DNA of 30,647 nucleotides from a virus. The stretch is taken from the IMG/VR virus record IMGVR_UViG_3300029675_000035. One strand, 5' to 3'. Made by a program: the position numbers and the translations under genes. This document shows positions 6,512 through 21,058 of the stretch, piece by piece. The notes under the pieces were generated by a model. The model saw only the letters and a program-made list of their open reading frames with translations. It had not been told where the DNA came from and made no database searches. Position 1 is the stretch's first letter; each line of letters starts with the position of its first letter.

Positions 6512-6524
6512 GTATGGTGTTTGG

Positions 6525-6910: not shown

Positions 6911-7060
6911 ATGCGTCGGGAATTTATCGAGAACATTCTGCTGATTCTCTTGTCGTCGTTTCTTATTGGCGTCATGGTGGTGGCTGGATATCTGATTGTT
7001 ACTGGGATTCCGGCTTTTGCTCGGTTTCTTTTTACTGTTTGGTATGTTTTGATTGTCTGA
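6911..7060 (+). CDS. Small two-TM membrane protein (49 aa), candidate holin/antiholin; not in the ORF track
   Basis: Hand translation: MRREFIENILLILLSSFLIGVMVVAGYLIVTGIPAFARFLFTVWYVLIV*. The stop TGA (7058-7060) lies just before the endolysin RBS AAGGAG. Third codon positions are almost all T/G, as in neighbouring real genes. The RBS is weak. Confidence 0.5.
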   Translation: MRREFIENILLILLSSFLIGVMVVAGYLIVTGIPAFARFLFTVWYVLIV

Positions 7061-7071
7061 AAGGAGACAAT

Positions 7072-7914: not shown

Positions 7915-7929
7915 TTGAAAGGATTGTTT

Positions 7930-8229: not shown

Positions 8230-8249
8230 TCTGCTTCTGTTATAAGAAT

Positions 8250-8300
8250 GCCCCGTGTTCGGCTTGTTTGGCCGGCTACGGGGCGTTTCTGTTTGTTTTT
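8250..8300 (+). terminator. Intrinsic terminator ending the late operon
   Basis: GCCCCGT(8250-8256)...ACGGGGC(8278-8284) with an inner CGGC/GCCG extension, followed by a T-rich tract gtttctgtttgttttt. Confidence 0.8.
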
Positions 8301-8304
8301 GGGG

Positions 8305-8574
8305 TTATTTCCAGTGGAAGAAGCGGATGGTGATTGGGGTTGTCATGGTGAAGTCGTGTCCGTTGCCGTTGTTTATTTCGTGGATTGGTGTGGTTTCGAC
8401 TTCTTCGATGCCGTTGAGGAGTCCGTAGAGGTTGATGAAGGCGTTGTAGTCTTTGATGCCGATGTTGCCGTAGTTAATTTCCGGGTTGAGTCCGTCTTCG
8501 TCGAGGATGGTGCCGATTTTCGGTTGTTGTGTGATGAGTCTGATGATGGTGGCGAGGTATTTGACGGTTTCCAT
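8305..8574 (-). CDS. Hypothetical protein (89 aa) driven by the duplicated hairpin-promoter cassette
   Basis: ORF with RBS AAAGGAG (rc of 8582-8590). It has its own extended -10 promoter and is the last gene of the leftward arm. Confidence 0.65.
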   Translation of the reverse strand: METVKYLATIIRLITQQPKIGTILDEDGLNPEINYGNIGIKDYNAFINLYGLLNGIEEVETTPIHEINNGNGHDFTMTTPITIRFFHWK

Positions 8575-8621
8575 TGTGGTTGCTCCTTTGTGTTGGCCAA
8601 GCCTTTTTGCTTGATGTATTT

Positions 8622-8664
8622 AATATAGCATAATGCGGCGTGTTGCACGAATACGACACGCCGC
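8622..8664 (-). promoter_or_regulatory. Hairpin/operator plus extended -10 promoter cassette (copy B)
   Basis: Minus strand: GCGGCGTGT-12 nt-ACACGCCGC (8635-8643 / 8656-8664), followed by TGcTATATT (rc of 8622-8630). Confidence 0.6.
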
Positions 8665-8672
8665 AGGATGAG

Positions 8673-8999
8673 TCACTCGAAGAAGACGTCGCCGCCGAGC
8701 TCGGCATTGAGTCGCTGTCGGTATTCCTTGCGTGGGCGTCTCAACCCGTTTTCCCACATCATGATGATGGTCGGACTGGATACGTGGATCAGTTTGGCGA
8801 GTTCGGCTTGGGTGTACCCGTACCGGTTTCGCCAATATTTGAGCCGTTGAGTGGCTGCCGTCTGGGTTCTGATGAGGAGGTAACTGACCGGGGTGCGTTT
8901 CCCGTTGGGGAGGACGTGGTAGAAGGCTCCTGTATAGGGGTTCTGGTGTACTGTGATCGTTTTGCCTTTGATGGTGGCGGTGAATGGTTCCTTTGCCAT
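8673..8999 (-). CDS. XRE-family HTH transcriptional regulator with N-terminal extra domain
   Basis: C-terminal half RLKYWRNRYGYTQAELAKLIHVSSPTIIMMWENGLRRP is a typical XRE/Cro-CI HTH. RBS AAGGAA. Confidence 0.8.
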   Translation of the reverse strand: MAKEPFTATIKGKTITVHQNPYTGAFYHVLPNGKRTPVSYLLIRTQTAATQRLKYWRNRYGYTQAELAKLIHVSSPTIIMMWENGLRRPRKEYRQRLNAELGGDVFFE

Positions 9000-9006
9000 G
9001 GTTTCC

Positions 9007-9294
9007 TTACTTTCTTTCGTCTGGTGTCGTGGTGTCGAAGAGCTCTTGCATGAGTTCGTTGCCTTTTTTGGTGAGTTGCCATCTCCAGCATGGCCGGTTG
9101 TGTCTGCTGATGCCGTTTCGGTCGATGCGGTGGACGTGTCCGGACCGTTCGAGTTCGACCATGCGGCTTCTTAGGCTTTGCGGCGTGTCCTTGAATCCGA
9201 GCGTCGATGCTATTGAGGTCAGGTGTTCTTGTGTGATTGGTTCCTTGAATAGGTAGAGGATGGTGGCGACGTGTAGGCGTGGGGTGTTGTTCAT
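9007..9294 (-). CDS. Winged-helix (MarR/ArsR-like) DNA-binding protein
   Basis: Start chosen at MNNTPRLHVATILYLF... (rc of cat at 9292-9294, ATGA overlap with the upstream gene). The motif ...ITQEHLTSIASTLGFKDTPQSLRSRMVELERSGHVHRIDRNG... is wHTH-like. The upstream part of track ORF 9007..9618 is Arg/His/Pro-rich junk. Confidence 0.65.
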   Translation of the reverse strand: MNNTPRLHVATILYLFKEPITQEHLTSIASTLGFKDTPQSLRSRMVELERSGHVHRIDRNGISRHNRPCWRWQLTKKGNELMQELFDTTTPDERK

Positions 9295-9629
9295 TGGATT
9301 CTGCTTTCTGCTTGGTGTCGGTAGTATGCGGCTATTGCTGTGGAGGCTGCCAATCCGGCGAGCCATTTGATGCCGAAGCGGATGTGGGAGGCTTTCGCTG
9401 TTATTGTCCATGTGGGGAGTGTCATGTATGGGCTGAGGCACCATCCGCAGTGGGCGAGCGTCCCGAGGCTGCGGGTGAGGTCGTTGTCCGATGTTTCGGT
9501 TTTGCTTGTGAGTTTGTTCCGAAGCTTGGCGAAGACGTAGTCGGGGCCGGGGGAGAGTTGCGTTATTGTGGTGGCGTATCCGGCTGTGAGTCCTGTGGTG
9601 AGGACCGCGGTCCACCATTCGGTTTTCAT
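9291..9629 (-). CDS. Membrane protein with CGWC motif (possibly DUF1360-like)
   Basis: 112 aa with hydrophobic N- and C-terminal helices and a central HCGWCLSPY. It is translationally coupled to the next gene. Confidence 0.55.
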   Translation of the reverse strand: MKTEWWTAVLTTGLTAGYATTITQLSPGPDYVFAKLRNKLTSKTETSDNDLTRSLGTLAHCGWCLSPYMTLPTWTITAKASHIRFGIKWLAGLAASTAIAAYYRHQAESRIQ

Positions 9630-9670
9630 TTTGTTGTCCTTTCGTTATTGTTGATGGGTTCGGTTGGGGT

Positions 9671-9913
9671 TTAGTGGATTTTTCCGTCGAATAATACCAG
9701 GGGGTATTTGATTGGTTTGTTCTGGTTTTTCGCTATGGTGCGGATGACGGTTGCGGTGGGGCTGCCGGATGATACGACTCGGAGTTGTTTCTGCATGTGT
9801 TGTGCTGCTGTGCGGCATGTGTCGAGGAATGCTGCGTCTTCTGGTTTGCATGTGGGGCAGCCGTCGAAGAGTACGTATATGTCGGGGCTGGTGAGGAGGG
9901 TGTCGATTGTCAT
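9671..9913 (-). CDS. Glutaredoxin/NrdH-like thioredoxin-fold protein
   Basis: 80 aa with an N-terminal beta strand followed by CPTC (YVLFDGCPTCK), and a C-terminal YPLVLFDGKIH typical of the Grx fold. Confidence 0.65.
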   Translation of the reverse strand: MTIDTLLTSPDIYVLFDGCPTCKPEDAAFLDTCRTAAQHMQKQLRVVSSGSPTATVIRTIAKNQNKPIKYPLVLFDGKIH

Positions 9914-10815
9914 TAGAATGATGCTCCTGTTGTTTCGGTGATGGTGTCGATGATGTGTAATACGTTGAGTTGTTTGCGTTTGTGGTCGGCGATGAGTGGT
10001 TTGATGTCCTTTCTGTGGATGGGGATGATTTGGTGTCGTGCGTCACCGTAGACTCGTGGGTCGTACATGCTGAAGTAGAGGGTTTCGAGTGTGTCGCAGA
10101 CGACGAAGTATTGGAGTGCTTGGGCTCGGTATGGGTCGGGGATGAAGTCCATGCCGGTGGCGTTGAGGCTTGTGGTTGTTGCGGGGAGTACTTGTGCGGC
10201 TGCGCCGGCGAGGTTGTCGGGGAGGGTGTGGTGTCGGATGAGTTGTGCGTGGATCATCCATGGGATGACGGCTTTGAGGTGGTAGGCGCTGCTTAGGCTT
10301 TTGCATTCGATGGCCCATGTTGGGTTTTTGGATGCTTGGTAGGCGTCTGGACTGCATGCGATTCGGTTGTCTTCGTCGCTTTCCCAGATGCCGCAGTCGG
10401 TGATGCAGTCTTTTTGCTGGTATCCGAGTTGTTGGAGGGTGAGGCGGATGTTTTCCGGTTCGAGCCTGTAGCCGCGTTCCATGGGGTTTTCTCCGTCTGG
10501 TTGTTCGGCCATGGTTTCGGAGAGGAATTTCCAGAAGTCGATGCCGACTTTGAGGCGTTTGTTTTTTGTTTCGGTTTCGGTGAGTAGTTCGTCGTATTTT
10601 AGTGCTGTCCGGTAGTGTTCTTCGGTTTCGTCTTTTGTTGTTGCTTCTTTTGATTGTTTGAGTGCTTTGTCTCGGTATTCGAGGATTTTTTTGGTGTCGG
10701 TTTGCCGGTAGTGGTCTAGGGCTAGGCCGCCGCTTTTGGTGCCGGTGATGCGGCCTAGGCGTTCGTTGAGCCATGCGTTGGTGTTGTTGGCTTGTGATAG
10801 GTTGATGGTTTTCAT
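9913..10815 (-). CDS. YqaJ/lambda-exonuclease-like PD-(D/E)XK recombination exonuclease
   Basis: Start at MKTINLSQ... (cat at 10813-10815) after GGGAAGGA. Motifs: WLNERLGRITGTKSG, SPDAY...WAIECKS (D..ExK). It lies adjacent to erf. The track ORF to 10938 is over-extended across a terminator and promoter. Confidence 0.7.
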   Translation of the reverse strand: MKTINLSQANNTNAWLNERLGRITGTKSGGLALDHYRQTDTKKILEYRDKALKQSKEATTKDETEEHYRTALKYDELLTETETKNKRLKVGIDFWKFLSETMAEQPDGENPMERGYRLEPENIRLTLQQLGYQQKDCITDCGIWESDEDNRIACSPDAYQASKNPTWAIECKSLSSAYHLKAVIPWMIHAQLIRHHTLPDNLAGAAAQVLPATTTSLNATGMDFIPDPYRAQALQYFVVCDTLETLYFSMYDPRVYGDARHQIIPIHRKDIKPLIADHKRKQLNVLHIIDTITETTGASF

Positions 10816-10846
10816 TGTCGGTCCTTCCCTTGAGGTTGATATCTTT

Positions 10847-10888
10847 ATTATATCTCTTATGTGGGTGGGGGTGGTAGTCGGCGTGTCG
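10847..10888 (-). promoter_or_regulatory. Promoter (GATATAAT) with upstream CGACACGCCG-type motif
   Basis: Minus strand TATAAT is the rc of 10847-10852. The 10-mer CGGCGTGTCG is on the plus strand at 10879-10888. Confidence 0.5.
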
Positions 10889-10899
10889 CATCCCCGATA

Positions 10900-10930
10900 T
10901 GAGAAAGACCCCGGTGGTTGGTCGGGGTCT
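10900..10930 (-). terminator. Intrinsic terminator after erf
   Basis: Minus strand AGACCCCG-9 nt-CGGGGTCT followed by TTTCTC (stems 10906-10913 / 10923-10930). Confidence 0.6.
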
Positions 10931-10934
10931 TGTG

Positions 10935-11528
10935 TCACATTCTGTTGATGGCGTCCATGAGTTTGGTCAGGTCGGATTGGGTGATTCCTCGCCAGCCTTT
11001 GACGGGCCGATTCAGGGTGCCTGAGATGAATTCGCCGCGTGCTTCGCTGGGGATGGCGTGTGTGTCCATGGCTTTGACGAGCGTGGCGTACTGGTCTGCT
11101 CCTATCGGCTTGTCTGCGGTTTCGTACTGCTGTCGGGCGTAATTCCCGTCGTCGTCCTTGTCTGGGAAGATGCCGAGTATGGTGGTGAGACTGTAGCGTC
11201 GTGCGTAGGTGATGGCGCTGCCGACCTGTTGTGGGTCACCCGTGATGAAGAATGGGTATTCGCAGACTGTCATCTGGTCGGTGTCGTCGAAGATGATGGT
11301 CTCGATGGTGCCGAGGGTCTGGCGTCCGTCTCCTGACCCGTCGAAGGTCACTTTTTGGGTGAACGCGAGCCCATGCTTTGCGAAGATCGGTTTGATGTTC
11401 TTGAGGAGCGTGGCGAGGTTGAGGTACTTGTAGGTGCGGCTTCCGGCGTTGGCGGTTTCGTCGGTGCTGAAGTTCGGGACTTCGTTGAGGACTTCGGCGA
11501 ATTTCCGGTTGAGGTTGTTGTTTTCCAT
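10935..11528 (-). CDS. erf: ERF-family single-strand annealing recombinase
   Basis: 197 aa. ...YKYLNLATLLKNIKPIFAKHGLAFTQ...GSAITYARRYSLTTILGI... matches the Erf superfamily signature region. Confidence 0.8.
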   Translation of the reverse strand: MENNNLNRKFAEVLNEVPNFSTDETANAGSRTYKYLNLATLLKNIKPIFAKHGLAFTQKVTFDGSGDGRQTLGTIETIIFDDTDQMTVCEYPFFITGDPQQVGSAITYARRYSLTTILGIFPDKDDDGNYARQQYETADKPIGADQYATLVKAMDTHAIPSEARGEFISGTLNRPVKGWRGITQSDLTKLMDAINRM

Positions 11529-11555
11529 TTGTGGTCCCTTTTGTGGTGTTGGCTG

Positions 11556-11909
11556 TCAGTGCTTGTAGATTGGGTAGACGATGGTCATTGGTGTTGTTTC
11601 GGTTACGTTGTTGTAGACGGTTTCGAGGGTTTCCATGCCTCCGATGTTGTAGGCCTGCGTGTAGAAGTCGATTCGTTCCGGATTGTTTTTGGCGAGCGTG
11701 TAGAGGTAGCATGCCCATTCCGCGTTATGGTCCCATTCGTAGTCTTCGAAGGCTTGGGAGTAGTCGTCGAGGGTGACGTATTTGTGGTCTCCGACGTGGT
11801 AGATGATGCCTTTTGGTGTGTGGTTGGTGTCGTAGTGGCTTTTTTGGTCGAGGCGGACGTCGATGGTGTGGATCATTGTTTTGACTTCGTCGGTGGTGAC
11901 GGTGTTCAT
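11556..11909 (-). CDS. Hypothetical acidic protein (117 aa) driven by the duplicated hairpin-promoter cassette
   Basis: ORF with RBS AAGGAG. The promoter cassette is nearly identical to the one at 8622-8664. The C-terminal ...NNVTETTPMTIVYPIYKH resembles ...TMTTPITIRFFHWK of 8305..8574. Confidence 0.65.
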   Translation of the reverse strand: MNTVTTDEVKTMIHTIDVRLDQKSHYDTNHTPKGIIYHVGDHKYVTLDDYSQAFEDYEWDHNAEWACYLYTLAKNNPERIDFYTQAYNIGGMETLETVYNNVTETTPMTIVYPIYKH

Positions 11910-11957
11910 TGGTTTGCTCCTTCTTGTGTGTCGCCAAGCTCTTTGCTTGATACATCC

Positions 11958-11999
11958 AATATATCACAATGCGGCGTGCGTTCAAACGCGACACGCCGC
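11958..11999 (-). promoter_or_regulatory. Hairpin/operator plus extended -10 promoter cassette (copy A)
   Basis: Minus strand GCGGCGTG...CACGCCGC (11971-11978 / 11992-11999), followed by TGaTATATT (rc of 11958-11966). Confidence 0.6.
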
Positions 12000-12055
12000 A
12001 AAGTTGATTGTTGCCTATCGTTTCCTATAGGAGATGAGTACCGTGAGTGCGAGGA

Positions 12056-12226
12056 TCAACATTGCGAGGACGCCATTATTCGTTCCCATGCCTTGTCCTT
12101 CTCGTATTGTTTGATGACGGCTTCAATCTCCGGTTTGCAACATTGGGGGATGAGTGGGGCGAATTCGTCGACGGTCAGGCCGTCTTCATGCCATTTGATG
12201 ATCTGGTTCTTCAGTGTTCTCTTCAT
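12056..12226 (-). CDS. Hypothetical small protein (56 aa); not in the ORF track
   Basis: Hand translation: MKRTLKNQIIKWHEDGLTVDEFAPLIPQCCKPEIEAVIKQYEKDKAWERIMASSQC*. The start overlaps the upstream stop (TAATG). Third positions are C/A-rich like neighbouring leftward genes. Confidence 0.5.
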   Translation of the reverse strand: MKRTLKNQIIKWHEDGLTVDEFAPLIPQCCKPEIEAVIKQYEKDKAWERIMASSQC

Positions 12227-12402
12227 TAGTGGTTCTTTCTGATTGCCGAATAGAATCCGGAGCTTTCCTGGTGGACTTGTCGGACGGTGTCTTCGTCCAT
12301 GTCGAGGATTTTGGCGGTCTTTTCGACCGACTGGTCGAGGTCGAAGAGGTAGTGTTCGATCAGGAGCCGGTCGAGTGGGATGTCATGGAGCTTGTGTATC
12401 AT
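12226..12402 (-). CDS. Small HTH protein (sigma-70 region-4 / RinA-ArpU-like)
   Basis: 58 aa: MIHKLHDIPLDRLLIEHYLFDLDQSVEKTAKILDMDEDTVRQVHQESSGFYSAIRKNH. It is coupled (ATGA) to the DUF3310 gene. The N-terminal part of track ORF 12226..12699 is junk. Confidence 0.55.
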   Translation of the reverse strand: MIHKLHDIPLDRLLIEHYLFDLDQSVEKTAKILDMDEDTVRQVHQESSGFYSAIRKNH

Positions 12403-12755
12403 TTGTTTTCCTCCTTTATCATCGTGTCGAGCGCGTTTAACACGGCATGCCATTCGTTTTTCAGTAGTCCGTACCATGCTGCGGATTCGTATCCGACCGT
12501 GGTTTCGACGAGGCGTAGCAGTATCTTCCTGCAGTGTCCGATGTTGAGGTCGACCTGTTCCTGCATCGTCGAGGCTCTGTGCGCGTACCATCGTGCTTTC
12601 CTGAGGTCTTCCAGCGGTGTTCCTTTGTCGTTGTACCTCCATAGGTATTTGATGACGTTGCCGGTGCAGAAGGTCTGGTATTGGGTGATGTCGATGCATT
12701 CGTATCCGATATTGCGGTCGTTGTAATGCGTGGGATGGTTGATGTTGTCTGTCAT
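12399..12755 (-). CDS. DUF3310-family protein
   Basis: Start at MTDNINHPTHY (cat at 12753-12755). NHPTHYN...IECIDIT...GNVIKYLWRYNDKGTPLEDLRKARWY matches the DUF3310 pattern. Confidence 0.7.
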   Translation of the reverse strand: MTDNINHPTHYNDRNIGYECIDITQYQTFCTGNVIKYLWRYNDKGTPLEDLRKARWYAHRASTMQEQVDLNIGHCRKILLRLVETTVGYESAAWYGLLKNEWHAVLNALDTMIKEENK

Positions 12756-13189
12756 TTGTTTTCCTTTGCTTCTTTTGCGGCTTTGGCCTTTGCTCGTCGG
12801 ATGCGGGCTCGTTCCCTTTGTTTCCGTGTGTATTCGGCTTTTTGTTCGGGGGTCATGGCGTGGTAGCGGGCTTTTTGTTTGGCGAGCATTTTTTCTCGCC
12901 ATTCGCTGTCGGTATGGTAGCGTGTCTTGGCTGTCTCTCTCTTTTTTTTGAGGGTTTTTGGCTTGCTGTGGTATTCTTTCTGTTTTGCCATGTATTGTTC
13001 GGCGTGTTCTTCTCTCCATTTCTTGTTTGCTTCGGCGCGTTCTTCTTTGTGGCGGTGGTAGTAGCGGTAGTCGCTGATTTTGCGTCGTTCTTTGGGTGAT
13101 GGCTGGCTGCTGCGCATTTCGTTGATCCAGTCCATCATGTCCTGGTCGTTGAGGTCGACGATGACGGGTTCTTTTGTTTTTCTGCCCAT
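12752..13189 (-). CDS. Highly charged Lys/Arg/Glu-rich protein with recurring Y/W-spaced helical repeats
   Basis: 145 aa with an ATGA overlap to the next gene. Recurring ...YYHRHKEERAEANKKWREEHAEQY...KTRYHTDSEWREKMLAKQKARYH... suggests a nucleic-acid-binding helical protein. Function unknown. Confidence 0.6.
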   Translation of the reverse strand: MGRKTKEPVIVDLNDQDMMDWINEMRSSQPSPKERRKISDYRYYHRHKEERAEANKKWREEHAEQYMAKQKEYHSKPKTLKKKRETAKTRYHTDSEWREKMLAKQKARYHAMTPEQKAEYTRKQRERARIRRAKAKAAKEAKENK

Positions 13190-13206
13190 TGTGTTCCTTT
13201 TTCTTT

Positions 13207-13494
13207 TTAGAAGCAGAATGCGATGATGGTCGCGAGTTCTTCTGTGGTGATGTTCAGGTCGTTTTTGTTGAACAGTGTGCTGGTTGCGAGTGCGGTTCCT
13301 TTTTCGTTGAATAAGACCATGTCGATCAGGCCGTCTTCGACTGGTGTGATGTGCAGTTTCCTGGTTGAGCCGTGTTTGGTTATTTCGTATGAGGTCTCGT
13401 CGCAGAGGTCGATGGTTTCGACCGTGTAGGTTTCCTCGGTGGTGGCTAGCGCGGTGGAAATTTCGGTGGCGAATTGTTCGATGTTGAGGTTCAT
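13207..13494 (-). CDS. Hypothetical strongly acidic protein (95 aa)
   Basis: ORF with RBS (rc of ttcctttttt). Many D/E/T residues and few basic residues. Confidence 0.6.
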   Translation of the reverse strand: MNLNIEQFATEISTALATTEETYTVETIDLCDETSYEITKHGSTRKLHITPVEDGLIDMVLFNEKGTALATSTLFNKNDLNITTEELATIIAFCF

Positions 13495-13519
13495 TTTTGT
13501 TTCCTTTTTTGTATGTTGT

Positions 13520-13816
13520 TTAGAGGCGGTTTTTGATGTCGGTGAAGATGTCGTCGAGGGTTAGGTCCGGTGGTTCGAGGTCCCAATGGTATACTTCACT
13601 GTCTGTGTCGGGGTCGTCTCCGTCGGCCCATACGAGCACGATGAACGTGTTATCGCGTTTGCTTGGGGCGATTTGCATGATGTGGTCGGAACCGTCTTTG
13701 CTGATTAGGATGCCGTGGGTCCTACCGTGGTCATTGATGGATGTCACGTCGTATTCGTATGGTAGACATCCGTTGAGGACGCAGAATAGGTTTCGGATGT
13801 TGTTCTTGTTACTCAT
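13520..13816 (-). CDS. Hypothetical acidic protein (98 aa)
   Basis: Start at MSNKNNIRNLF (cat at 13814-13816) after GAAAAGGAAAA. The longer track ORF would run into its own promoter (TATAGT, rc near 13871-13880). Confidence 0.6.
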   Translation of the reverse strand: MSNKNNIRNLFCVLNGCLPYEYDVTSINDHGRTHGILISKDGSDHIMQIAPSKRDNTFIVLVWADGDDPDTDSEVYHWDLEPPDLTLDDIFTDIKNRL

Positions 13817-13952
13817 TTTGGTTTTCCTTTTCTGTTTGGTGGCTTGGTGTTTTCCTTGCCTGATATCTAACACTATACCCACAATCGTGATGTGACACGC
13901 TGAGGGGGATGAAAAAAGGCGGCGCGCTTTTATATGTGTCGCCTTGGTGTCA

Positions 13953-14798
13953 TTAGAGGCCGAGGAGGTTTCTCAGGCCCGTTGAATCTTCTCGGGACTT
14001 CCTCTTCCTTCTGTCCATGTTTTTGACTTCGACCGGGAAGCACATTTCGACGATGCGGCTGTAGATGCGCTGCTTGTCGGTGTTCGGCTGGTTCATCATT
14101 TCCTCTTTGGAGAGATTGGTTGTGAGGATGAGCGGTTTGCCGCTCCGATACCGTGCGTCGATGATGTTGAAGATCATTTCGTGCATGAACGACGTGTCGC
14201 GTTCCGCGGCCAGATCGTCGATGACCAGTAGGTCCAGCCGGTTTAAGTCGTCGAGGTAACGCTGTTTGCCGTCGAACATTCCTTGGAGTGTGTTTGTGAT
14301 TCGTGCGAAGTTGGTTACGAGGCACGGGCGGCCTTGGTTGATGAGCTCGTTGGCGATGGCTGCGGCGAGGAAGGTCTTGCCGCTGCCGACCGGACCGTAG
14401 AACAGCAGTCCTTTGCCGTGTTTCTTCATTTCTGGGAAGTTTTCGACGTATTTGTGTGCGATGTCGGAGGCTGTCTTGTTTGTTCCGTCGTCGCTGGCGA
14501 AGGTCCAGTTGGCTATTTCCGTGTCGGGGAAGCCGAGTTTGCGGAGTCGGTTTACTTCGATGCGGAGGTCTCGCGCCTGGCGTGCTTGTTCTTCGGCGTC
14601 ATGGCGTTCGCGTTCGCAGTCGCAGGATGTGTACGGTTTCTTTTCCTTGCCGTCCCAGGATGCGGTGAAGCGGCATTGTTTTGGTGTGTGGCATTTTCCG
14701 CACATGAGGAGGCCGTCTTCGTTGAGGTAGTCGCCTTTTTTGTAGTGGCTGTCTTGGTTTGCTTCGGAGACCATGTTTTCGATGATATTGGTTTCCAT
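13953..14798 (-). CDS. DnaC/IstB-like AAA+ helicase loader with N-terminal Cys-rich (zinc-finger-like) region
   Basis: Walker A GPVGSGKT and Walker B LLVIDDL. N-terminal CGKCHTPKQC...CDCERE. Confidence 0.85.
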   Translation of the reverse strand: METNIIENMVSEANQDSHYKKGDYLNEDGLLMCGKCHTPKQCRFTASWDGKEKKPYTSCDCERERHDAEEQARQARDLRIEVNRLRKLGFPDTEIANWTFASDDGTNKTASDIAHKYVENFPEMKKHGKGLLFYGPVGSGKTFLAAAIANELINQGRPCLVTNFARITNTLQGMFDGKQRYLDDLNRLDLLVIDDLAAERDTSFMHEMIFNIIDARYRSGKPLILTTNLSKEEMMNQPNTDKQRIYSRIVEMCFPVEVKNMDRRKRKSREDSTGLRNLLGL

Positions 14799-14903
14799 TG
14801 TGGTTCCTTTCTGTTATCTGCGACAATGTTATCTCACGTGTTGCCGGCATTGTGTTACCGGCGTGTCGTGTTTTGCGTGTGGTCGATGTCTGCTTATTGT
14901 GCG

Positions 14904-15728
14904 TCACCATCCGACGGTGCAGCTGGGTTCTTCGTCGTCTCTCATGGGAGCGCAATAGGGTGACTGGCCGTTGTAGCTGTCGTACTGGTTGGAGTTGTTG
15001 TACCGGTTGCTTTGCGGTGTCGCATTGGTGTTGAGGTAGCCTTCGAACTTGTTGCCGAAGAGGATGTCCGGGCGGAGGAATTGGGCCATTTTCGGGTTGC
15101 CTACCCATTCCGTGGCCTTCTTGTCGATGACCAGCTTCATGTCCTCGACGGTGAAGCCTTCCTTGAGGCGGGCTTTGATGAGTTTGCGAGTGGCTGCGGT
15201 GGTGGCCTTGTACTTCGTTCCGAGCCTGTGGTTCAGATGGTTTACGACTTCTTCGGTGGGGTCTGGCTCCTTCGGCTGTATCGGGGCCTGCGGCTCTGGG
15301 ATGAGCGGCTGCGGTTCGTAGGTCGGCGTCTGGAATCGTTCCGGTATTGCGTTCGTGGTGCTGGCCCATGGGTCCTGTGCCGGGGCCTGTGTGGCTGCTG
15401 GGGATTGTGTGGCTGCGGGAGCCGGCGTGGCTGTGGAGGTTGGATAGATGGCGACGTAGTCGACGAGTCGGTTGCCGTAGTCGTCCGTGTGGGGGTATTT
15501 GGCTAAGAGGCCTTTGTCGATGAGTGAGCCGAGTGATCTGTCGACGGTGTCCAGCGAGCATCCGCACCAGTCGGCGATGTATTTGCGGCTGCCGGTGAAT
15601 CTTGATCGGCCGTCTTGTGAGAAGCCGTAGATGAGCGCGTAGATGAGGAGTGCGTTGCCTTTGAGGTTGAGCTGGGTGCGCATCCATCCTTGGATTGCGA
15701 TGAAGTTATTGTCTTTTACTGCTGACAT
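14904..15728 (-). CDS. Replisome organiser / replication initiator (N-terminal wHTH, C-terminal DnaD/Phg_2220_C-like domain)
   Basis: Start at MSAVKDNNFIAIQGWM (cat at 15726-15728). The C-terminus VVNHLNHRLGTKYKATTAATRKLIKARLKEGFTVEDMKLVIDKKATEWVGNPKMAQFLRPDILFGNKFEGYLN matches the conserved phage replication C-terminal domain. A Pro/Ala/Thr/Gln-rich linker separates the domains. Confidence 0.8.
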   Translation of the reverse strand: MSAVKDNNFIAIQGWMRTQLNLKGNALLIYALIYGFSQDGRSRFTGSRKYIADWCGCSLDTVDRSLGSLIDKGLLAKYPHTDDYGNRLVDYVAIYPTSTATPAPAATQSPAATQAPAQDPWASTTNAIPERFQTPTYEPQPLIPEPQAPIQPKEPDPTEEVVNHLNHRLGTKYKATTAATRKLIKARLKEGFTVEDMKLVIDKKATEWVGNPKMAQFLRPDILFGNKFEGYLNTNATPQSNRYNNSNQYDSYNGQSPYCAPMRDDEEPSCTVGW

Positions 15729-15842
15729 GATGTTTCCCCCGGAAAAAGTGAATCCCACTGACTGCTACCGTCTCCTACCCGGTGGCAATCAATGGGATTC
15801 GTACCATGCAAGTTATGCTCTCCACATGAGTGGTAGGAGTCC

Positions 15843-16184
15843 TCACATGGCGTATGTCTTTAGTGTAGCACGCTTTTTTTGACGACACGCCGACTTGAAT
15901 TGGATTGCCACATACCAGCTGAGGTCACCGTAATGGACCATTCTGAGCAAACCCTCATCCTCAAGCTTTCCGAGGGTCTCGTGAACGGTATCATCGGACA
16001 GGCTCGGGAACATCCGGGGAAAATCATCATAGGGCATCCGAACCCAATAACGGCCGTCATGATAGTGGCCTTGTTGCTTCCTCTGCTTCCGGTAGAGGTC
16101 GTAGAGCTGAATATAGACGGCCGTCGCGGTGTAACCCAGCACCTCGATCAGTTTGGATATGGGCGGAAGATCCTTCAAAATCAA
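15843..16184 (-). CDS. Winged-helix DNA-binding protein
   Basis: 113 aa. ...DDTVHETLGKLEDEGLLRMVHYGDLSWYV... is wHTH-like. The 3' end overlaps promoter/operator F. Confidence 0.55.
   Translation of the reverse strand: MILKDLPPISKLIEVLGYTATAVYIQLYDLYRKQRKQQGHYHDGRYWVRMPYDDFPRMFPSLSDDTVHETLGKLEDEGLLRMVHYGDLSWYVAIQFKSACRQKKRATLKTYAM
15862..15892 (-). promoter_or_regulatory. Extended -10 promoter (TGcTACACT) with CGGCGTGTCG motif 12 nt upstream; drives the replication genes
   Basis: On the plus strand, agtgtagca is at 15862-15870 and CGACACGCCG at 15883-15892. The geometry matches the promoter at 18890-18920. Confidence 0.55.
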
Positions 16185-16426
16185 TCCTCCTCAATGAACG
16201 AGCTGAAGAGACTGCGATTATAGAGGGTGCCGCCAAGCTTCGAAAGCGCGGTCACCGGATTATCATACTTCCTGCATGCGATATCCCAAGCCTTAAGGAC
16301 CTCCTCATCCCCGAACTTCAAGCACAGGCCAGAAAAGAACTTCCGTGCCTTCCCCTCGCTTTCCTCACGGAAGTGGACACCGTACCTCTCCGTAATGGAC
16401 TTGCTGATGGTTTTGTAAACGCTCAT
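16181..16426 (-). CDS. Hypothetical protein (81 aa)
   Basis: ORF with RBS GAAAGGAAA and upstream TGaTATACT (rc of 16461-16469). ATGA-type overlap with the next gene. Confidence 0.6.
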   Translation of the reverse strand: MSVYKTISKSITERYGVHFREESEGKARKFFSGLCLKFGDEEVLKAWDIACRKYDNPVTALSKLGGTLYNRSLFSSFIEED

Positions 16427-17477
16427 GATCGGTTTCCTTTCGTATCAAACCATTACCTCAAGTATATCACAAAGCATTGAAAATGCGTCGAAAGCAAGGG
16501 GGTGGTCACTCACTGCCCATCCTGCCCTTCACCCCACTCACGTACCTGCCCCTCACTCACATTCACCCCGGCCACCGCCATGCCCTGTTTCTTGAGGAAG
16601 GGAGCGAGCTTCGGTAGAGAGAGTAAGCCTTAAGAGCCTGAAAAATTTAAGTGCTTTTTCAGGTTTTAAGGCTTGATGACTGTTTCCGTCGGTCGGTCGG
16701 TCACACGGCGTCGGTCATAAGAGTGGTGCATTACTACCACTGATGCGGCATACCCCCTCAGATCGCGCTACATCTTTGATGTGATGGTGTCGGCATCCCG
16801 GTTATTCCACCATCGTCTGAAAGGTCAGTTGAACTAGCACCTCTAACGTGTGTATCAACGAGGGTCAGTCGTCGTCCCGTTAATCAAGCAAGGGATATGG
16901 CTAGAAAGTTTTCGTGCCTCCGCACCCAAGTATCTGGTATACCGGCTTTGTTCGTTTCTACTCCCCATCATAGCACATTGTGCCGTGGTGGGGTTTTCTA
17001 TCACGCCGTTCACCGCATTCCTCCTATACGCTTTCCACCGCACATGCCTCTAGAACGCACGTAAAGGTCCCTCAAACCGATTTTCACGTCAAACCCGATA
17101 ACTCGTCAAGACTCACCCACGACAGCCCGTCAAAAAGCCTTTACGCACGAAAGTGACGTTCCAGCATCAAAAGCACCGAAAAGCATCGAGAACACCAAGC
17201 CGTGGGAGGACCACCCAAGCCAAGCACGGACCAACTCTCCTCCATGCCATAACCAGATCGGATATCGAGACCAAGGCCCGAAGGGCCACATCGAGGTGAG
17301 GCCCGTATCCTCCTCCTTGCCCAAAGCCATGGACGAAGCCTCGAAGCCAACAGGTCAGACTCCATGGCTCCATGCCTCAGTCACCGAAGCCCTCGAGGCT
17401 ATGCTCTCATCGCTCTCGTCTCCCAATCCCACTGGGTTGGGATTGTCTCCTCTCCGACACGCACGCGGCTCCCCGCG
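16427..17477. other. ORF-free, helix-rich region (candidate large structured ncRNA and/or extended origin region)
   Basis: No protein-like ORF on either strand. There are many strong stems, listed in the findings. The region is insulated by a terminator at 17646-17699 and a promoter at about 16461. Confidence 0.45.
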
Positions 17478-17501
17478 GGAGCCGTCTTAGTTAGATTATC
17501 T

Positions 17502-17539
17502 CTAGAGTATCTAACCTAGAGTATCTATCTATAGTATGG
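17502..17539. repeat. AT-rich short direct repeats (CTAGAGTATCTA x2 plus a degenerate third); possible DNA-unwinding element
   Basis: ctagagtatcta occurs at 17502-17513 and 17516-17527, then tctatagtatgg. This is the most AT-rich patch in the neighbourhood. Confidence 0.6.
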
Positions 17540-17542
17540 TGA

Positions 17543-17628
17543 CTGATTTTGCGGCTACCCCCACCCTGATTTTGCGGCCACCCCCACCCTGATTTTGCGG
17601 CCACCCGCCACGAATATGCGGCCACCAC
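17543..17628. repeat. Iterons: about 3.7 tandem copies of a 23-bp unit CTGATTTTGCGGCCACCCCCACC; putative replication origin
   Basis: Copies at 17543-17565, 17566-17588 and 17589-17611, plus a partial copy ...atatgcggccaccac at 17612-17628. They are head-to-tail, non-coding and adjacent to the AT-rich repeats. Confidence 0.7.
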
Positions 17629-17645
17629 TTATTGCATCAGAAATG

Positions 17646-17699
17646 GTTAAAAATAAGGCCCCGGCCAGTCCGGGAATCTTCCCAAGACCAACCGGGGCC
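17646..17699 (-). terminator. Intrinsic terminator of the dUTPase/DUF1064 operon
   Basis: Minus strand GGCCCCGG...CCGGGGCC (17692-17699 / 17657-17664) with an inner GGGA/TCCC stem, followed by TTATTTTTAA. Confidence 0.75.
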
Positions 17700-17717
17700 A
17701 TGCCCATTCCTAGGCCG

Positions 17718-18059
17718 TCATGTCTCCTTGATGTTCACGCCATACCGTCGTGCGAAGAGCTTGCTCTTGAGCTTGTACACGTCCGTCCTCATGCCCTTCA
17801 CGTCCTCGACGGTCTCCTTGCCTGTTTCCTTGTCCATGTAGACGAAGTCAGCCACGTAATAGACAGGCCGGTAATGTCTGCCATCCACATCGAAAGCCGG
17901 TACGAGCTCGTAGCGCACCTGTCTACACAAGTCGGAGATGAGCCCGTCCTCCTCCATGCCCTTGAGGACGAGATACCTGTCGGCCTCACGCCTCGAGTCG
18001 AAGGTGATGCCGTCGACGACGGTTTTCTTCGCATGGTATTTGCTGCTCCCGTGCCACAT
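17718..18059 (-). CDS. DUF1064-family PD-(D/E)XK nuclease (putative Holliday-junction resolvase-like)
   Basis: SKYHAKKTVVDGITFDSRREADRYLVL...YVADFVY...VEDVKG...YKLKSKLF matches the DUF1064 pattern. Confidence 0.75.
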   Translation of the reverse strand: MWHGSSKYHAKKTVVDGITFDSRREADRYLVLKGMEEDGLISDLCRQVRYELVPAFDVDGRHYRPVYYVADFVYMDKETGKETVEDVKGMRTDVYKLKSKLFARRYGVNIKET

Positions 18060-18062
18060 GGC

Positions 18063-18473
18063 TTACCTTCCGGTGCTTCCGAAGCCGTTATCGCCACGCT
18101 CCGTCGCATTGAACGCGGAAACCTGTTCCAATGACTCGCAGACCACCGGAATCACGACCAGCTGCGTGATCTTGTCCCCGGCTGCAAACTGGTGATCCTC
18201 GCCGCCATGGTTGTAGAGCTTGACCACGATGCTGCCCGTATAGCCTTTGTCGATGAGTCCGGTGCTGGTGATGCTGTGCCTGACATTGAGGCCGCTCTTG
18301 CTAACGAGCAGTCCGGCGCACCCTTGTGGCAACGCCACGTGTACTCCCGTATCGACTGTCGTACTTCCGTAGGCCGGTACGGTCACAGCTTTCGGTGTGC
18401 GTAGGTCCAGTCCGGCATCGGTACCGTGGCCTCGTGATGGCATATATGCTCCGTTGTCCAGCATGACTTCCAT
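18063..18473 (-). CDS. dut: dUTP diphosphatase (trimeric dUTPase)
   Basis: Motifs GHGTDAGLDLR, GLIDKGYTGSI and RGDNGFGSTGR. Confidence 0.9.
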   Translation of the reverse strand: MEVMLDNGAYMPSRGHGTDAGLDLRTPKAVTVPAYGSTTVDTGVHVALPQGCAGLLVSKSGLNVRHSITSTGLIDKGYTGSIVVKLYNHGGEDHQFAAGDKITQLVVIPVVCESLEQVSAFNATERGDNGFGSTGR

Positions 18474-18551
18474 TTGTCTTCTCCTTTTGTGGTATGATCG
18501 TCTATGTCGGTAAGTTTTTTGGTTTCCCTTCCCGACTGCCTTTCATTGGAT

Positions 18552-18597
18552 AAAATAATACCCACCCAGGTGAATGCCCGGGTGGGTATTATTTTTT
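18552..18597. terminator. Bidirectional intrinsic terminator
   Basis: AAAATAATACCCACCC-12 nt-GGGTGGGTATTATTTT (16-bp stem including A/T arms), flanked by T-runs on both strands. Confidence 0.8.
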
Positions 18598-18607
18598 AGT
18601 GCTTGCG

Positions 18608-18832
18608 TCAGCGCTTACGGTATCCTCCGTTCGCCATCTTGACGATGTAGTAGACGAGGTAGATTCCGCTGGTGAGGCAGGAGTAGATGAGGACCTTGAG
18701 GAATCCTGGGGCCTTCTTCTTGCCGCTGTCGTCCGACTGGGCCGGCGTTACGTTGTTGATGATGATCGGCTGCGGCGCGGACTGCGGCTGGGTCGGCTGG
18801 GTTTCCGTCTGGTTGGTGTTCTGGTCGTTCAT
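18608..18832 (-). CDS. Small membrane protein (74 aa), first gene of the leftward early arm
   Basis: RBS AAAGGAAC. Gln/Thr/Pro-rich N-terminus, then a TM helix (FLKVLIYSCLTSGIYLVYYIV). Confidence 0.6.
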   Translation of the reverse strand: MNDQNTNQTETQPTQPQSAPQPIIINNVTPAQSDDSGKKKAPGFLKVLIYSCLTSGIYLVYYIVKMANGGYRKR

Positions 18833-18889
18833 TTTCTGTTCCTTTCAATGTTGGTAGGTTTTTGATGTCCTACGTTGTTTGATATACAC

Positions 18890-18920
18890 ACAATATCACG
18901 CTCGCCATCGCGACACGCCG
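18890..18920 (-). promoter_or_regulatory. Leftward early promoter (TGaTATTGT) with CGGCGTGTCG motif 12 nt upstream
   Basis: On the plus strand, acaatatca is at 18890-18898 and CGACACGCCG at 18911-18920. Confidence 0.55.
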
Positions 18921-18949
18921 AAAGGACAGCGAACCGCCACACACAATGG

Positions 18950-18978
18950 TTGCAATCCAGAAAAAACGAAGCTATACT
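18950..18978 (+). promoter_or_regulatory. Sigma-70-type promoter TTGCAA-17-TATACT
   Basis: TTGCAA at 18950-18955, an exact 17-nt spacer, and TATACT at 18973-18978. Confidence 0.6.
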
Positions 18979-18984
18979 AATCCC

Positions 18985-19063
18985 TGTACCTCATCGCGTA
19001 TATTCTCCCTGATGAGTGCCCAGCCGGGTTTCCCCCCTCTTTCCCCGGTTGGGCACTTTTTTT
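18985..19063 (+). ncRNA. Candidate ~80-nt small RNA (two hairpins; the second is an intrinsic terminator)
   Basis: Bounded by the promoter above and a 13-bp GC-rich stem (19016-19028 / 19044-19056) followed by T7. First hairpin: CTCATC(18990-18995)/GATGAG(19011-19016). No ORF. The start coordinate is approximate. Confidence 0.4.
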
Positions 19064-19121
19064 ATACCCAAAACCTCCGATCCATGCCACGCACACCAAC
19101 GGCACACTGATGCGAAATGAG

Positions 19122-19150
19122 TTGTCATGACATTCAAACCGTTATATAAT
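19122..19150 (+). promoter_or_regulatory. Rightward early promoter TTGTCA-17-TATAAT producing a leaderless mRNA
   Basis: TTGTCA at 19122-19127, a 17-nt spacer, and TATAAT at 19145-19150. The ATG at 19158 begins 8 nt after the -10 and there is no SD. Confidence 0.65.
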
Positions 19151-19157
19151 AAGACTT

Positions 19158-19337
19158 ATGAACGCTAAAGATTACACAGTAACAGTCCCCGAATACGCCA
19201 ACCGCTGGAAGCTCAACATCCAGACCGTCCGCCGCTTCATCCGCGAAGGACGACTCCACGCAGTCAAGGTCGGCAGATGCTACTTCCTCGACCCGAACGT
19301 AATCCCAGACAAGGAAAGCCACCCGGCCAACGAGTAG
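19158..19337 (+). CDS. Excisionase/MerR-family HTH (HTH_17) DNA-binding protein, 59 aa; not in the ORF track
   Basis: Hand translation: MNAKDYTVTVPEYANRWKLNIQTVRRFIREGRLHAVKVGRCYFLDPNVIPDKESHPANE*. ...IQTVRRFIREGRLHAVKVGR.YF... is the HTH_17 signature. Confidence 0.7.
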   Translation: MNAKDYTVTVPEYANRWKLNIQTVRRFIREGRLHAVKVGRCYFLDPNVIPDKESHPANE

Positions 19338-19357
19338 CCATCCGACCAACCAACCAT

Positions 19358-19388
19358 TTAAGGGGTGGACATATCATCCACCCCTTAA
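19358..19388. promoter_or_regulatory. Perfect 12-bp inverted repeat TTAAGGGGTGGA-7 nt-TCCACCCCTTAA
   Basis: Read directly from the sequence. No U-tract on either strand. It lies between the HTH gene and the first antirepressor. Confidence 0.6.
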
Positions 19389-19416
19389 ACATCACCAAGC
19401 AAAGAAAGGCAACAAA

Positions 19417-20207
19417 ATGAATACCGAAATTCAGACATTCAATTTCAATGACACAACATTGCGCACCCTGACCGACACGGCCGGCGACCCTTGGTTCATC
19501 GCCAAAGACGTGTGCGACATCCTAGGAATCCGGACAAACAATCTCCGTGCGACTCTGGACGAGGATGAAGTCACCGAATTAAGCAATGACTATACTGTAG
19601 TCATTGCCCAGAACGGAGGTAAGCCGCCGCTGATCATCTCCGAATCAGGCCTCTACAGCCTCGCCTTAAAATCCCGCAAGCCGGAAGCCAAGGAATTCAA
19701 ACACTGGGTAACCCACGAAGTACTGCCGACAATCCGCAAGCACGGCGCATACATGACCCAGCAAACCATCGACAAGGCCCTCACCAACCCCGACTTTCTC
19801 ATCCAACTCGCAACCAAGCTGAAAGAAGAACAGGAAAAGTCAAGGCACTGGAACCAAAAGCCAAAGCCCTCGACACCTTCGTCGACGTGGAAGACAAGCT
19901 GCTCATCCGCGACGCCGCCAAGGCCCTCTCCAACTCCGGCACACCAATCAGCGAAAAGCGGCTGCGCGAATGGATGACCAACGACGGATGGATCTACAGG
20001 TCTAATGGCTCATGGCATGCGACAGCGAAACACTGCACAGCAGGCCACCTCGTAATGGCCATGTCCACAAAGTACGCCACCAAGTCAGACGGTACGAAAT
20101 TCGCCTTCCCCCCAACCGTACGCATCACCCGAAAAGGATTGACACTACTCCACAGACGCCTCGTCGACACCATCCTGAACAAAGCCCTCGAAACAACCAA
20201 CGACTAA
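19417..20207 (+). pseudogene. Bro-N/KilAC antirepressor paralog 1, split by a -1 frame change at about 19833-19841 (disrupted, mis-sequenced or programmed)
   Basis: The Bro-N domain (19417 frame) reads ...LATKLKEEQEK. The -1 frame continues VKALEPKAKALDTFVDVEDKLLIRDAAKALSNSGTPISEKRLREW..., colinear with paralog 2 (IRELEPKAKALDDFTNVPDALLVRDAAKLLSNAGTPIGEKELREW). After the break the original frame gives a Pro/Ser/Thr-rich tail. Confidence 0.6.
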
Positions 20208-20227
20208 CCAAAAAGAAAGGCAATGGA

Positions 20228-21058
20228 ATGAACGCAGAAGCCCAGCCGTTCGAATTCGAACACAACCAGGTCAGAGCCCTGGCCGACGGCGACGAAGTAA
20301 TGTTCGTCGCCTCCGACATCGCCAAGATCCTCGGATACCGCGACGCAGCGAACCTTACCCGCACCCTTGACGCCGACGAAAAGGGTACTCACGAAGTGAG
20401 TACCCCCCATGGCGGCGGGCAGAACATGACAGTCCTCACCGAATCAGGCCTCTACCGCGCAATCCTCAACCGTGAAGCCGCCTACGTGAAAGAACCGGAA
20501 GCACAAGCATTCGTGAAGCGTTTCCAGCGTTGGGTGACTCACAAGGTGCTTCCATCGATTCGACGTACTGGCGGCTACATTCCCACCGGCGATGCCGATA
20601 ACGATGAGGACATCATGGCACGCGCGGTACTCATCGCACAGAAGACCATCGAACGCAAGAACCAGCAGCTCAAAGCCAAAGACGCGCAGATCAGGGAACT
20701 GGAACCAAAAGCCAAGGCATTGGATGACTTCACCAACGTGCCCGACGCCCTACTAGTCAGGGACGCAGCGAAACTGCTCTCGAACGCCGGCACGCCCATC
20801 GGCGAGAAGGAATTGCGAGAATGGCTCAGCCAGCACGGTTGGATGTACCGGCACGCCGGCACATGGGGGGCAGCCTCGGAACGTGTGAAAGCCGGACATC
20901 TGGTCATGGTAGCGTCAAGATCGCACGGACAGCATAAGGACGGCAGTATCTTCGCTTTCGCTCCGACCGTCAAGATCACCCGCAAAGGCTTGGCACTCCT
21001 CCATACACGTCTCGGCGAAACCCGCCTGAACGAGACCCTCGAAACAACCACCCACTGA
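20228..21058 (+). CDS. Bro-N/KilAC antirepressor paralog 2 (intact)
   Basis: ATG at 20228 follows AAAGAAAGG. N-terminal Bro-N (FEFEHNQVRAL...FVASDIAKILGY...LTESGLYRAIL...FQRWVTHKVLPSIRRTGGY) and a C-terminal KilAC domain. The track ORF from 20012 is over-extended. Confidence 0.85.
   Translation: MNAEAQPFEFEHNQVRALADGDEVMFVASDIAKILGYRDAANLTRTLDADEKGTHEVSTPHGGGQNMTVLTESGLYRAILNREAAYVKEPEAQAFVKRFQRWVTHKVLPSIRRTGGYIPTGDADNDEDIMARAVLIAQKTIERKNQQLKAKDAQIRELEPKAKALDDFTNVPDALLVRDAAKLLSNAGTPIGEKELREWLSQHGWMYRHAGTWGAASERVKAGHLVMVASRSHGQHKDGSIFAFAPTVKITRKGLALLHTRLGETRLNETLETTTH

Follow-up and report, generated by a model that had tools for sequence, protein, structure and literature searches.

A structured RNA gene beside a probable replication origin in a gene-free gap of a siphovirus-like genome

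The virus record IMGVR_UViG_3300029675_000035, analysed here over its whole length of 30,647 nucleotides (the window), is a siphovirus-like genome of ~30.6 kb in circularly permuted form; its gene map is broken at 16427–17717 by a 1.29-kb gap, by far the longest interval without a credible gene. An initial annotation had singled out this gap as a candidate for one large structured RNA in a tightly packed genome. The packing had been overstated: all other gaps except a 325-bp divergent promoter region were put below about 150 bp, but a crude gene map has gaps of 225–423 bp at 6471–6895, 9053–9279, 9674–9913, 11909–12226 and 18832–19134. The gap itself is a composite and not one giant RNA, containing a structured RNA unit (RNA-A), a conserved segment (block B), a probable replication origin and boundary signals (Table 1); RNA-A takes up about one-third of it, and the probable origin and the conserved block the remainder. 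A conservation profile divides it into the promoter and leader of an 81-aa gene (16427–16500), an all-or-none cassette (16500–17005), block B (17027–17400), a variable stretch (17400–17650) and a conserved terminator (17650–17717). Both boundary signals had been proposed beforehand and are found again in the relatives. The terminator of the incoming leftward operon, a hairpin followed by a T-run on the minus strand, keeps its long GC-rich stem in all of them, and the extended −10 of the 81-aa gene occurs as TGGTATACT or TGATATACT at an unchanged distance from the ribosome-binding site.

Table 1. Features of the gap and of the genome around it, with the RNA-A copy of one contig from a second lineage (window positions unless stated).
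Feature	Position	Strand	Remarks
Extended −10 of the 81-aa gene and downstream replication genes	16461–16469	−	TGATATACT; read from the sequence
Variable-length C-rich repeats (CCCTCAC-like), left cassette edge	16500–16587	+	low alignment occupancy and identity
RNA-A gene, ~410-nt multi-helix structured RNA	16588–17003	+	consensus fold, covariation, homology boundaries
Nested hairpin of RNA-A (helices 3 and 4)	16624–16675	+	outer stem invariant
Best-supported domain of RNA-A	16754–16824	+	helices 16754–16763/16815–16824, 16770–16782, 16783–16789/16808–16814
RNA-A terminator	stem 16963–16993, T-tract to 17003	+	conserved in both lineages
Block B	17027–17400		conserved, non-coding; C/A-rich on the plus strand; no strand assigned
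Inverted repeat, right end of block B	17322–17371		GAGCCATGGA-N29-TCCATGGCTC; two CCATGG palindromes; invariant
Two GC-rich hairpins between block B and the AT-rich segment	17419–17446, 17464–17485		from the alignment
AT-rich segment	17490–17536		two CTAGAGTATCTA copies; candidate DNA-unwinding or host-factor site
Four ~23-bp iterons	17537–17626		core TGATTTTGCGGC; fourth degenerate; direct-repeat families D1 and D2
Terminator of the leftward dUTPase/DUF1064 operon	17646–17699	−	scan hit 17675–17659 and T-run
Early genes	19349 leftward to 9913	−	dUTPase 18063, DUF1064 17718, then the gap
Early genes left of the gap, in order	16181; 15843	−	81-aa gene; 113-aa DnaD-like gene
Early genes further left	14904; 13953; 10935; 9913	−	Rep initiator; DnaC-like loader; Erf; exonuclease
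Rep initiator	14904–15758	−	HTH_36 and Phg_2220_C domains (helix-turn-helix and DnaD-like C-terminal domain)
Late operon	22155; 23474; 25586	+	terminase large subunit; portal; protease/capsid
Late operon, continued across the window ends	785; 6895	+	tape measure (785), tail genes, amidase (6895)
RNA-A copy in contig L074	8921–9343 of L074		opposite strand to the HNH-ParB-TerS-TerL operon

The comparison draws on a clade of 33 related contigs of ~30 kb, the window and 32 further sequences (IMG/VR records and three metagenome records), recovered with the two flanking proteins and DNA patterns as queries. Most come from the IMG metagenome 3300045988, called a human-faecal co-assembly in a preprint, and seven contigs of about 30.6 kb encode an identical DUF1064 protein. 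Wherever both flanking genes were found in a relative, the locus has a gap of 391–1695 nt, with about 490–1700 nt between the flanking protein matches. Alignment to the gap of the window gives identities of 76–86% among relatives, and the mean identity in the gap (83–84%) compares with 81% and 77% in the flanking genes.

That the gap is free of genes, as the initial annotation had proposed from ORFs (open reading frames) that overlap one another, is borne out by the relatives, in which ORFs of at least 70 aa vary in strand, frame and position. No Pfam family is matched by the translated stretches or ORFs of the gap, no relative has an intact conserved ORF there, and single-base insertions and deletions are polymorphic. 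Minority substitutions are even over the three codon phases in RNA-A (p=0.11 for 16570–17004), compared with p=7e-66 for DUF1064 and p=6e-57 for the 81-aa gene in the same test; block B (17005–17385) gives p=0.02 without an excess at third positions. If the gap were one or more decayed protein-coding genes, this would explain a long, nearly stop-free plus-strand frame at 16790–17490 and the ORFs of 150–190 aa seen in some relatives. However, the frame that is open differs between relatives, and plus-strand stop-free stretches are open in two or three frames simultaneously because T and G are scarce on that strand. Together with the 1-nt insertions and deletions, the lack of a third-position excess, of Pfam matches and of any relative with an intact ORF, and a distant phage (L024, DUF1064 36% identical) in which ORFs follow directly after DUF1064 with no gap at all, this leaves decay with next to no credibility. 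Recoded stop codons were rejected on six-frame stop counts, the frame-inconsistent ORFs, the insertions and deletions, the lack of periodicity and the lack of a Pfam match.

The RNAalifold consensus for RNA-A has 106 base pairs and −110 kcal/mol on the plus strand, against −82 kcal/mol on the minus strand. Over 16 sequences, 19 pairs and 75 cells covary, compared with 11.9±1.7 pairs and 26.5±4.6 cells in shuffled alignments; none of 500 shuffles reaches the observed covariation, and slid structures give 2–7 pairs. When 21 sequences are used, covariation is seen in 23 of 95 pairs and 85 cells (shuffles 11.5±1.7 pairs and 28.4±3.9 cells; slid controls 3–7 pairs), and the new variants lie in the inner hairpin, in 16722–16741, in 16770–16782 and in the terminator stem. 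A clear exchange is found at 16783–16789/16808–16814, where GAUGG/CCAUC becomes GGCAG/CUGCC, four adjacent pairs, in 7–9 sequences. Pair 199/272 in the helix 16754–16763/16815–16824 occurs as AU, UA, GC and CG, and covariation is also clear in 16858–16861/16869–16872. Several stems that had been paired by hand reappear here. The hairpin at 16625–16674 shows AU/GC exchange of its inner stem in 7 of 16 sequences, and this stem is fully swapped for another pairing sequence (CTACAGGCA/TGCTTGTAG) in a second phage lineage of 35–37 kb (described below as the 35-kb lineage); the pairing 16963–16970/16986–16993 turns out to be the terminator stem of RNA-A; and 16934–16945 is part of a hairpin (~16928–16950) whose sequence and length differ in almost every relative and which folds in all. 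While the helices covary, the unpaired segments are invariant. Minimum free energy (MFE) z-scores against dinucleotide shuffles are −3.25 on the plus and −2.03 on the minus strand for the window copy (16590–17003), and −5.61 and −4.20 for the copy in L074. The helix richness claimed for the whole region is thus modest, since 17005–17490 reaches only −2.09 (plus) and −1.17 (minus). The initial annotation had listed, as grounds for giving up a structured RNA, an intact gene in relatives, missing covariation and folding no better than shuffled sequence; no relative has such a gene, and RNA-A both covaries and folds better than its shuffles.

RNA-A probably acts on the plus strand. Its 3′ end in the 30-kb clade reads CCCCATCAT...GTGATGGGG followed by TTTTTCTTTT, a hairpin and U-tract on the plus strand only, and in the 35-kb lineage GGCTCCATCA...TGATGGAGC followed by TTTTTT. 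This is the form of an intrinsic terminator, a GC-rich hairpin directly before a U-tract, which a simple scan missed because of its long loop; the stem pair 467/487 is seen as CG, UG and UA. Homology between the two lineages begins at TTTCTTGAGG and stops after the T-tract, and these shared limits therefore define the RNA-A unit. Single sequences also fold better on the plus strand (MFE −143.9 versus −120.8 for the window and −163.6 versus −124 for L074), the advantage being 23–40 kcal/mol for single sequences and 28 kcal/mol for the consensus. A weaker pointer to this strand is that its minority G·U cells number 50 against 26 A·C cells. Covariation cannot separate the strands, so the call rests on the terminator and the folding energy.

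The same observations bear on the possibility that the structured element is a minus-strand 5′ leader or cis-regulator of the leftward operon that follows it, the replication genes here and the HNH-terminase genes in the 35-kb lineage. A minus-strand operon follows the element directly in both lineages (in L074, 38 nt separate it from the start codon of the HNH endonuclease gene heading the operon), covariation is equally good on the minus strand, and no plus-strand promoter was found in the 30-kb clade. Yet the hairpin and T-tract, which lie inside the unit common to both lineages, work as a terminator on the plus strand only, and the minus strand folds 23–40 kcal/mol worse. In the window the extended −10 of the 81-aa gene is downstream of the element, which places the element outside that mRNA, and one-third of the clade is without the element while the operon is unchanged. 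We consider a leader unlikely on this balance.

RNA-A is present in 21 of the 33 clade contigs and missing from the other 12. Contigs have the cassette either whole or not at all, apart from a 66-nt remnant in L030. Homologues were sought with nhmmer profiles, and a looser pattern search found RNA-A in four contigs of the second lineage (L073, L074, L075 and L085), human-gut phages of 35–37 kb with another large-terminase family and several HNH genes. These copies are 76–79% identical to those of the 30-kb clade and lie between small ORFs and the HNH-ParB-TerS-TerL operon, again antisense to their neighbours; neither block B nor the iteron motif of the window was found at these loci. Taken together, the sequence comparisons describe RNA-A as an apparent accessory unit exchanged horizontally, a moron-like unit with an RNA product. 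Like phage morons it has its own terminator and is polymorphic in presence among close relatives, and it shares with them intergenic insertion, an antisense setting and occurrence in unrelated phages. It differs in that morons have a protein product where RNA-A is a structured RNA, and in that a promoter for RNA-A is plausible in the 35-kb lineage only, where a −10-like CATAGT or CATAAT ends 3 nt before its conserved start. An internal promoter candidate in the window, TTGAGG-17-TAGAGA (16592–16620), was rejected, as the second base of its would-be −10 is G in about one-third of sequences and the last base of that hexamer is never T.

The initial annotation had compared the gap with ROOL- and GOLLD-type RNAs, and had read it as a candidate for one large structured RNA, tentatively of plus sense. 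That description stands for 16588–17003 (~410 nt, with its own terminator and covariation) and is not supported for the remaining ~700 nt. No model of Rfam 15 matches the whole window or four relatives at the gathering cut-off, and at E<=10 the gap and the L074 copy give only chance-level matches to microRNA, small nucleolar RNA and small RNA families, at 10–18 bits compared with gathering thresholds of 50–90. ROOL (RF03087), GOLLD (RF01998), HEARO and OLE resemble RNA-A in being intergenic, ORF-free, multi-helix, supported by covariation and carried by phages, but none of their covariance models matches it even at E<=10. ROOL- and GOLLD-type RNAs are roughly 580–800 nt, and RNA-A is shorter. 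In addition the window has no transfer RNA (tRNA) genes, and RNA-A has so far been seen only in two human-gut phage lineages. One RNA of more than 1 kb spanning the gap would fit a region that is long, ORF-free, conserved, insulated by terminators and provided with several hairpins. It is hardly tenable against an internal terminator at 16963–17003, an RNA-A that is separable and occurs alone in the other lineage, a block B without structure support, a segment at 17400–17650 that is swapped for unrelated cassettes, and the lack of an Rfam match.

Block B is conserved to the same degree as the genes, at ~0.9 occupancy and a column identity to the window of 73–93% (85–93% over most of the block). 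It is found only in the 30-kb clade, in nearly all relatives. It is absent from L030, and L016 keeps only its last ~130 nt; its loss, entire or large, in these two relatives indicates that they can dispense with it. The folding models suggest no convincing RNA structure on either strand. On the plus strand the consensus fold has −33 kcal/mol and two covarying pairs. On the minus strand, 93 pairs are mostly kept via G·U, and seven covary as against 3.4 in shuffles and 1–5 in slid controls. We rejected block B as a minus-strand RNA on these grounds: its 111 G·U against 22 A·C cells are expected from the local C-to-T strand bias, and the covariation is no better than in the slid controls. The single promoter scan hit (minus strand, 17109–17080) is not conserved and was likewise discarded, and complementarity to the rest of the genome does not go beyond chance matches of at most 13 nt. 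Among the stems drawn here by hand, GGCCC-gaa-GGGCC at 17275–17287 has two independent compensatory variants, CAC-GAAA-GTG at 17146–17155 is not kept in relatives, and 17060–17067/17138–17145 and 17325–17332/17362–17369 are invariant and hence uninformative on pairing. The last ~90 nt, with GAGCCATGGA...TCCATGGCTC, accompany every iteron cassette, which is why the inverted repeat may be a protein-binding site. Block B as a whole may be an accessory DNA sequence of the origin, an unstructured transcript or a homology arm; as an arm, it may be kept uniform by frequent exchange of origin cassettes.

To the right of block B, the stretch 17490–17626 is probably a Rep-dependent replication origin, judging from its sequence organisation and its variation among relatives. 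It has the features of an iteron origin, with four tandem direct repeats spaced 23, 23 and 21 nt apart (such origins have three or more of ~17–23 bp) and an AT-rich stretch at 17485–17540, in which CTAGAGTATCTA is directly repeated at 17502–17513 and 17516–17527. This motif adjoins most, though not all, iteron types in the relatives. At least six unrelated iteron types occupy the same place in L001–L055, and four contigs (L004, L013, L022 and L029) have two cassettes split by a duplicated copy of 17310–17400. The iteron type goes with the initiator: the N-terminal domain of Rep is 74–90% identical to that of the window in relatives with window-type iterons; with other iterons it is, save in one relative, 59–68% identical or undetectable, whereas the identities of DUF1064 and of the 81-aa protein do not follow iteron type. 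Iterons are kept in L016 and L030 despite the loss of RNA-A and of most (L016) or all (L030) of block B. The Rep, DnaD-like and DnaC-like genes lie immediately left of the gap. Similar arrangements are known from the iteron theta origins of λ (ori and O), SPP1 (oriL and G38P) and P1 (oriR and RepA), which have tandem ~20-bp repeats, an AT-rich segment, a helix-turn-helix initiator and a helicase-loader gene nearby; the repeats here co-vary with the DNA-binding domain of the initiator. In those systems the repeats are inside or abut the rep gene, whereas the predicted origin here is ~1.8 kb from rep, with two small genes, RNA-A and block B in between. As regards neighbouring sequence, the two hairpins at 17419–17485 are limited to relatives with the cassette arrangement of the window, and a plus-strand T·G wobble in that at 17419–17446 becomes T-A or C-G in some relatives. 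Two contigs of ~30 kb, L010 and L018 (041245 and 071936), end ~180–200 nt past the DUF1064 stop, inside the iteron region, which may reflect an assembly break at tandem repeats or hint at real DNA ends.

We read the gap as the replication-origin region of the phage, next to which a separate gene for a non-coding RNA has been inserted, and put the probability of this at roughly 70%. Rep would bind the four iterons and then open the adjacent AT-rich segment, where the DnaC-like loader would bring in the host helicase, and the terminators on both sides (17646–17699 on the minus and 16963–17003 on the plus strand) would shut out flanking transcription. RNA-A would be transcribed rightward, antisense to its neighbours; the alignments support a closed fold of about ten helices that ends at its own hairpin and U-tract.

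Several observations weigh against this account. For the origin assignment, the main one is the sign of the strand skew. The plus strand is G/T-rich from ~830 to 15800 and C/A-rich from 19400 round to 830, and skew at third codon positions reaches 0.87 for GC and 1.0 for AT independently of gene orientation. The switch points, near 826–936 and 15711–15881, are antipodal on the circle, and the gap lies at one of them, inside a low-skew zone (15800–19400). The switch is common to all loci of the 30-kb clade, while BlindUri1 (a cultured phage, see below), L024 and the 35-kb lineage have no such asymmetry. By the bacterial rule of a G/T-rich leading strand, the sign at the gap is that of a terminus, with forks converging; gene orientation, on the other hand, fits forks leaving the gap. 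A linear form with its ends in the low-skew zone and long 5′-to-3′ resection would, alternatively, fit the skew sign. The locus stands at a switch of extreme asymmetry that is not explained by ordinary theta replication from that origin. As to the origin itself, L055 combines a Rep N-terminal domain like that of the window (85%) with different repeats, and the conservation of block B is left unexplained by an origin and RNA-A. On the side of RNA-A, no recognisable sigma-70-type promoter, and no TANNNT, was found upstream of it in the 30-kb clade. Compensatory changes are strand-symmetric, the minus-strand fold having 15 covarying pairs, and the contrast of G·U with A·C is gone when counted by pairs (22 versus 22). 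All homologues are at least 76% identical, so that covarying cells are partly inherited and not independent events. The long-range closing helices 16596–16615/16900–16927 have two covarying pairs and several disrupted cells, and the fold from 21 sequences predicts an alternative local 5′ hairpin; in these models the 5′ segment may either close the structure with 16900–16927, a pairing that is weakly supported, or form the local hairpin.

The skew is also what speaks for the element working as single-stranded DNA, as an orientation-specific signal for second-strand priming or primosome assembly. Such signals are known from the sso cassettes of rolling-circle plasmids, which are exchangeable, from ssiA of pAMβ1 and from mitochondrial OriL. 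RNA-A lies next to the origin, exactly at the switch in strand composition, with a skew sign that fits converging forks; by folding energy it is strand-specific, and it is dispensable and exchangeable as sso cassettes are. If this were true, it would tie the element to the mitochondrion-like strand asymmetry of the clade. With ~410 nt, multiple branches and long-range closure, however, it is far larger than known ssi and sso signals, its conserved U-tract terminator points to transcription, and it occurs in the 35-kb lineage without extreme skew (origin-like repeats were not looked for there). The chance of a DNA signal of this kind appears slim.

An RNA gene at an origin could also control or prime replication, as do RNA II and RNA I of ColE1. 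In the non-RepA cluster A mycobacteriophages a transcribed non-coding region of 400–500 nt is the prophage origin (Wetzel et al. 2020, PMC7157519), and the present phage, with an actinobacterial host, has a 400-nt non-coding unit directed towards the iterons. These origins are the closest functional analogue, a non-coding unit at the replication locus of an actinobacteriophage that is antisense to its neighbours, though the likeness to the cluster A and ColE1 systems is one of description. Those systems replicate without an initiator protein and depend on the RNA region. The window has both Rep and iterons, and its RNA-A is dispensable (missing from 12 of 33 clade members), ends ~530 nt before the iterons, and is found beside packaging genes in the 35-kb lineage, a context other than an origin. 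Origins primed by RNA are recognised by the lack of an initiator and by a transcript entering the origin, and RNA-A fits neither description. A role as primer or replication-control RNA is therefore quite improbable.

What RNA-A does may be sought elsewhere. Tentatively, and with less than even odds, we suggest that it works in trans, its folded form binding a protein of the host or phage, and not as an antisense regulator or replication primer. Three points lead to this view: the helices covary but the unpaired segments do not vary, no extended stretch is complementary to other parts of the genome (only chance matches of at most 13 nt), and the genomic context is not tied to an origin. It is a more speculative and doubtful step to see in it the founder of a new class of large phage RNA, mobile among unrelated actinobacterial phages of the human gut and acting in trans; for instance, it may sequester or scaffold a protein of the host or phage during host take-over or counter-defence. 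Few bacterial and phage RNAs exceed ~350 nt and have complex conserved folds, and such RNAs have repeatedly been associated with unusual biochemistry. RNA-A is a new RNA candidate outside Rfam 15, and its clear boundaries, two contexts, natural deletion variants and human-gut phage origin make it directly testable. A large screen of IMG/VR has predicted 10,006 candidate structured RNAs (PMC10690425). The locus further provides a comparative origin assignment for uncultivated phages, in which interchangeable iteron cassettes follow the DNA-binding domain of the initiator.

The closest cultured phages are BlindUri1 and BlindBasel1 of Bifidobacterium asteroides, with a portal 49% identical; they have no homologue of RNA-A or block B. 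The amidase of the window is similar to actinobacteriophage amidases. A blastn search of the INPHARED phages with the gap gave no match, exact-pattern scans for block B and RNA-A in GTDB genomes turned up, at that stringency, neither a host nor a prophage copy, and a literature search with sequence strings from the element was equally without a match. Neither an integrase nor a recognisable repressor was found in the window genome, and no tRNA or transfer-messenger RNA (tmRNA) genes were found in it.

Some smaller features are found at the left edge of the cassette and in the rightward genes. The C-rich repeats upstream of RNA-A extend over 80–150 nt, differ in length and sequence in almost every relative, and are missing where the cassette is missing. 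On the minus strand they form G-tracts just upstream of the promoter of the 81-aa gene, and might be a G-quadruplex or a Rho-loading site. In L002, L005 and L019 the −10 of this gene is inside the palindrome AGTATACT (equivalent to 16457–16470 of the window), which reads TATACT on both strands and could serve as a divergent promoter. Finally, two consecutive Bro-N/KilAC anti-repressor-like genes (19417–21058) head the rightward operon.

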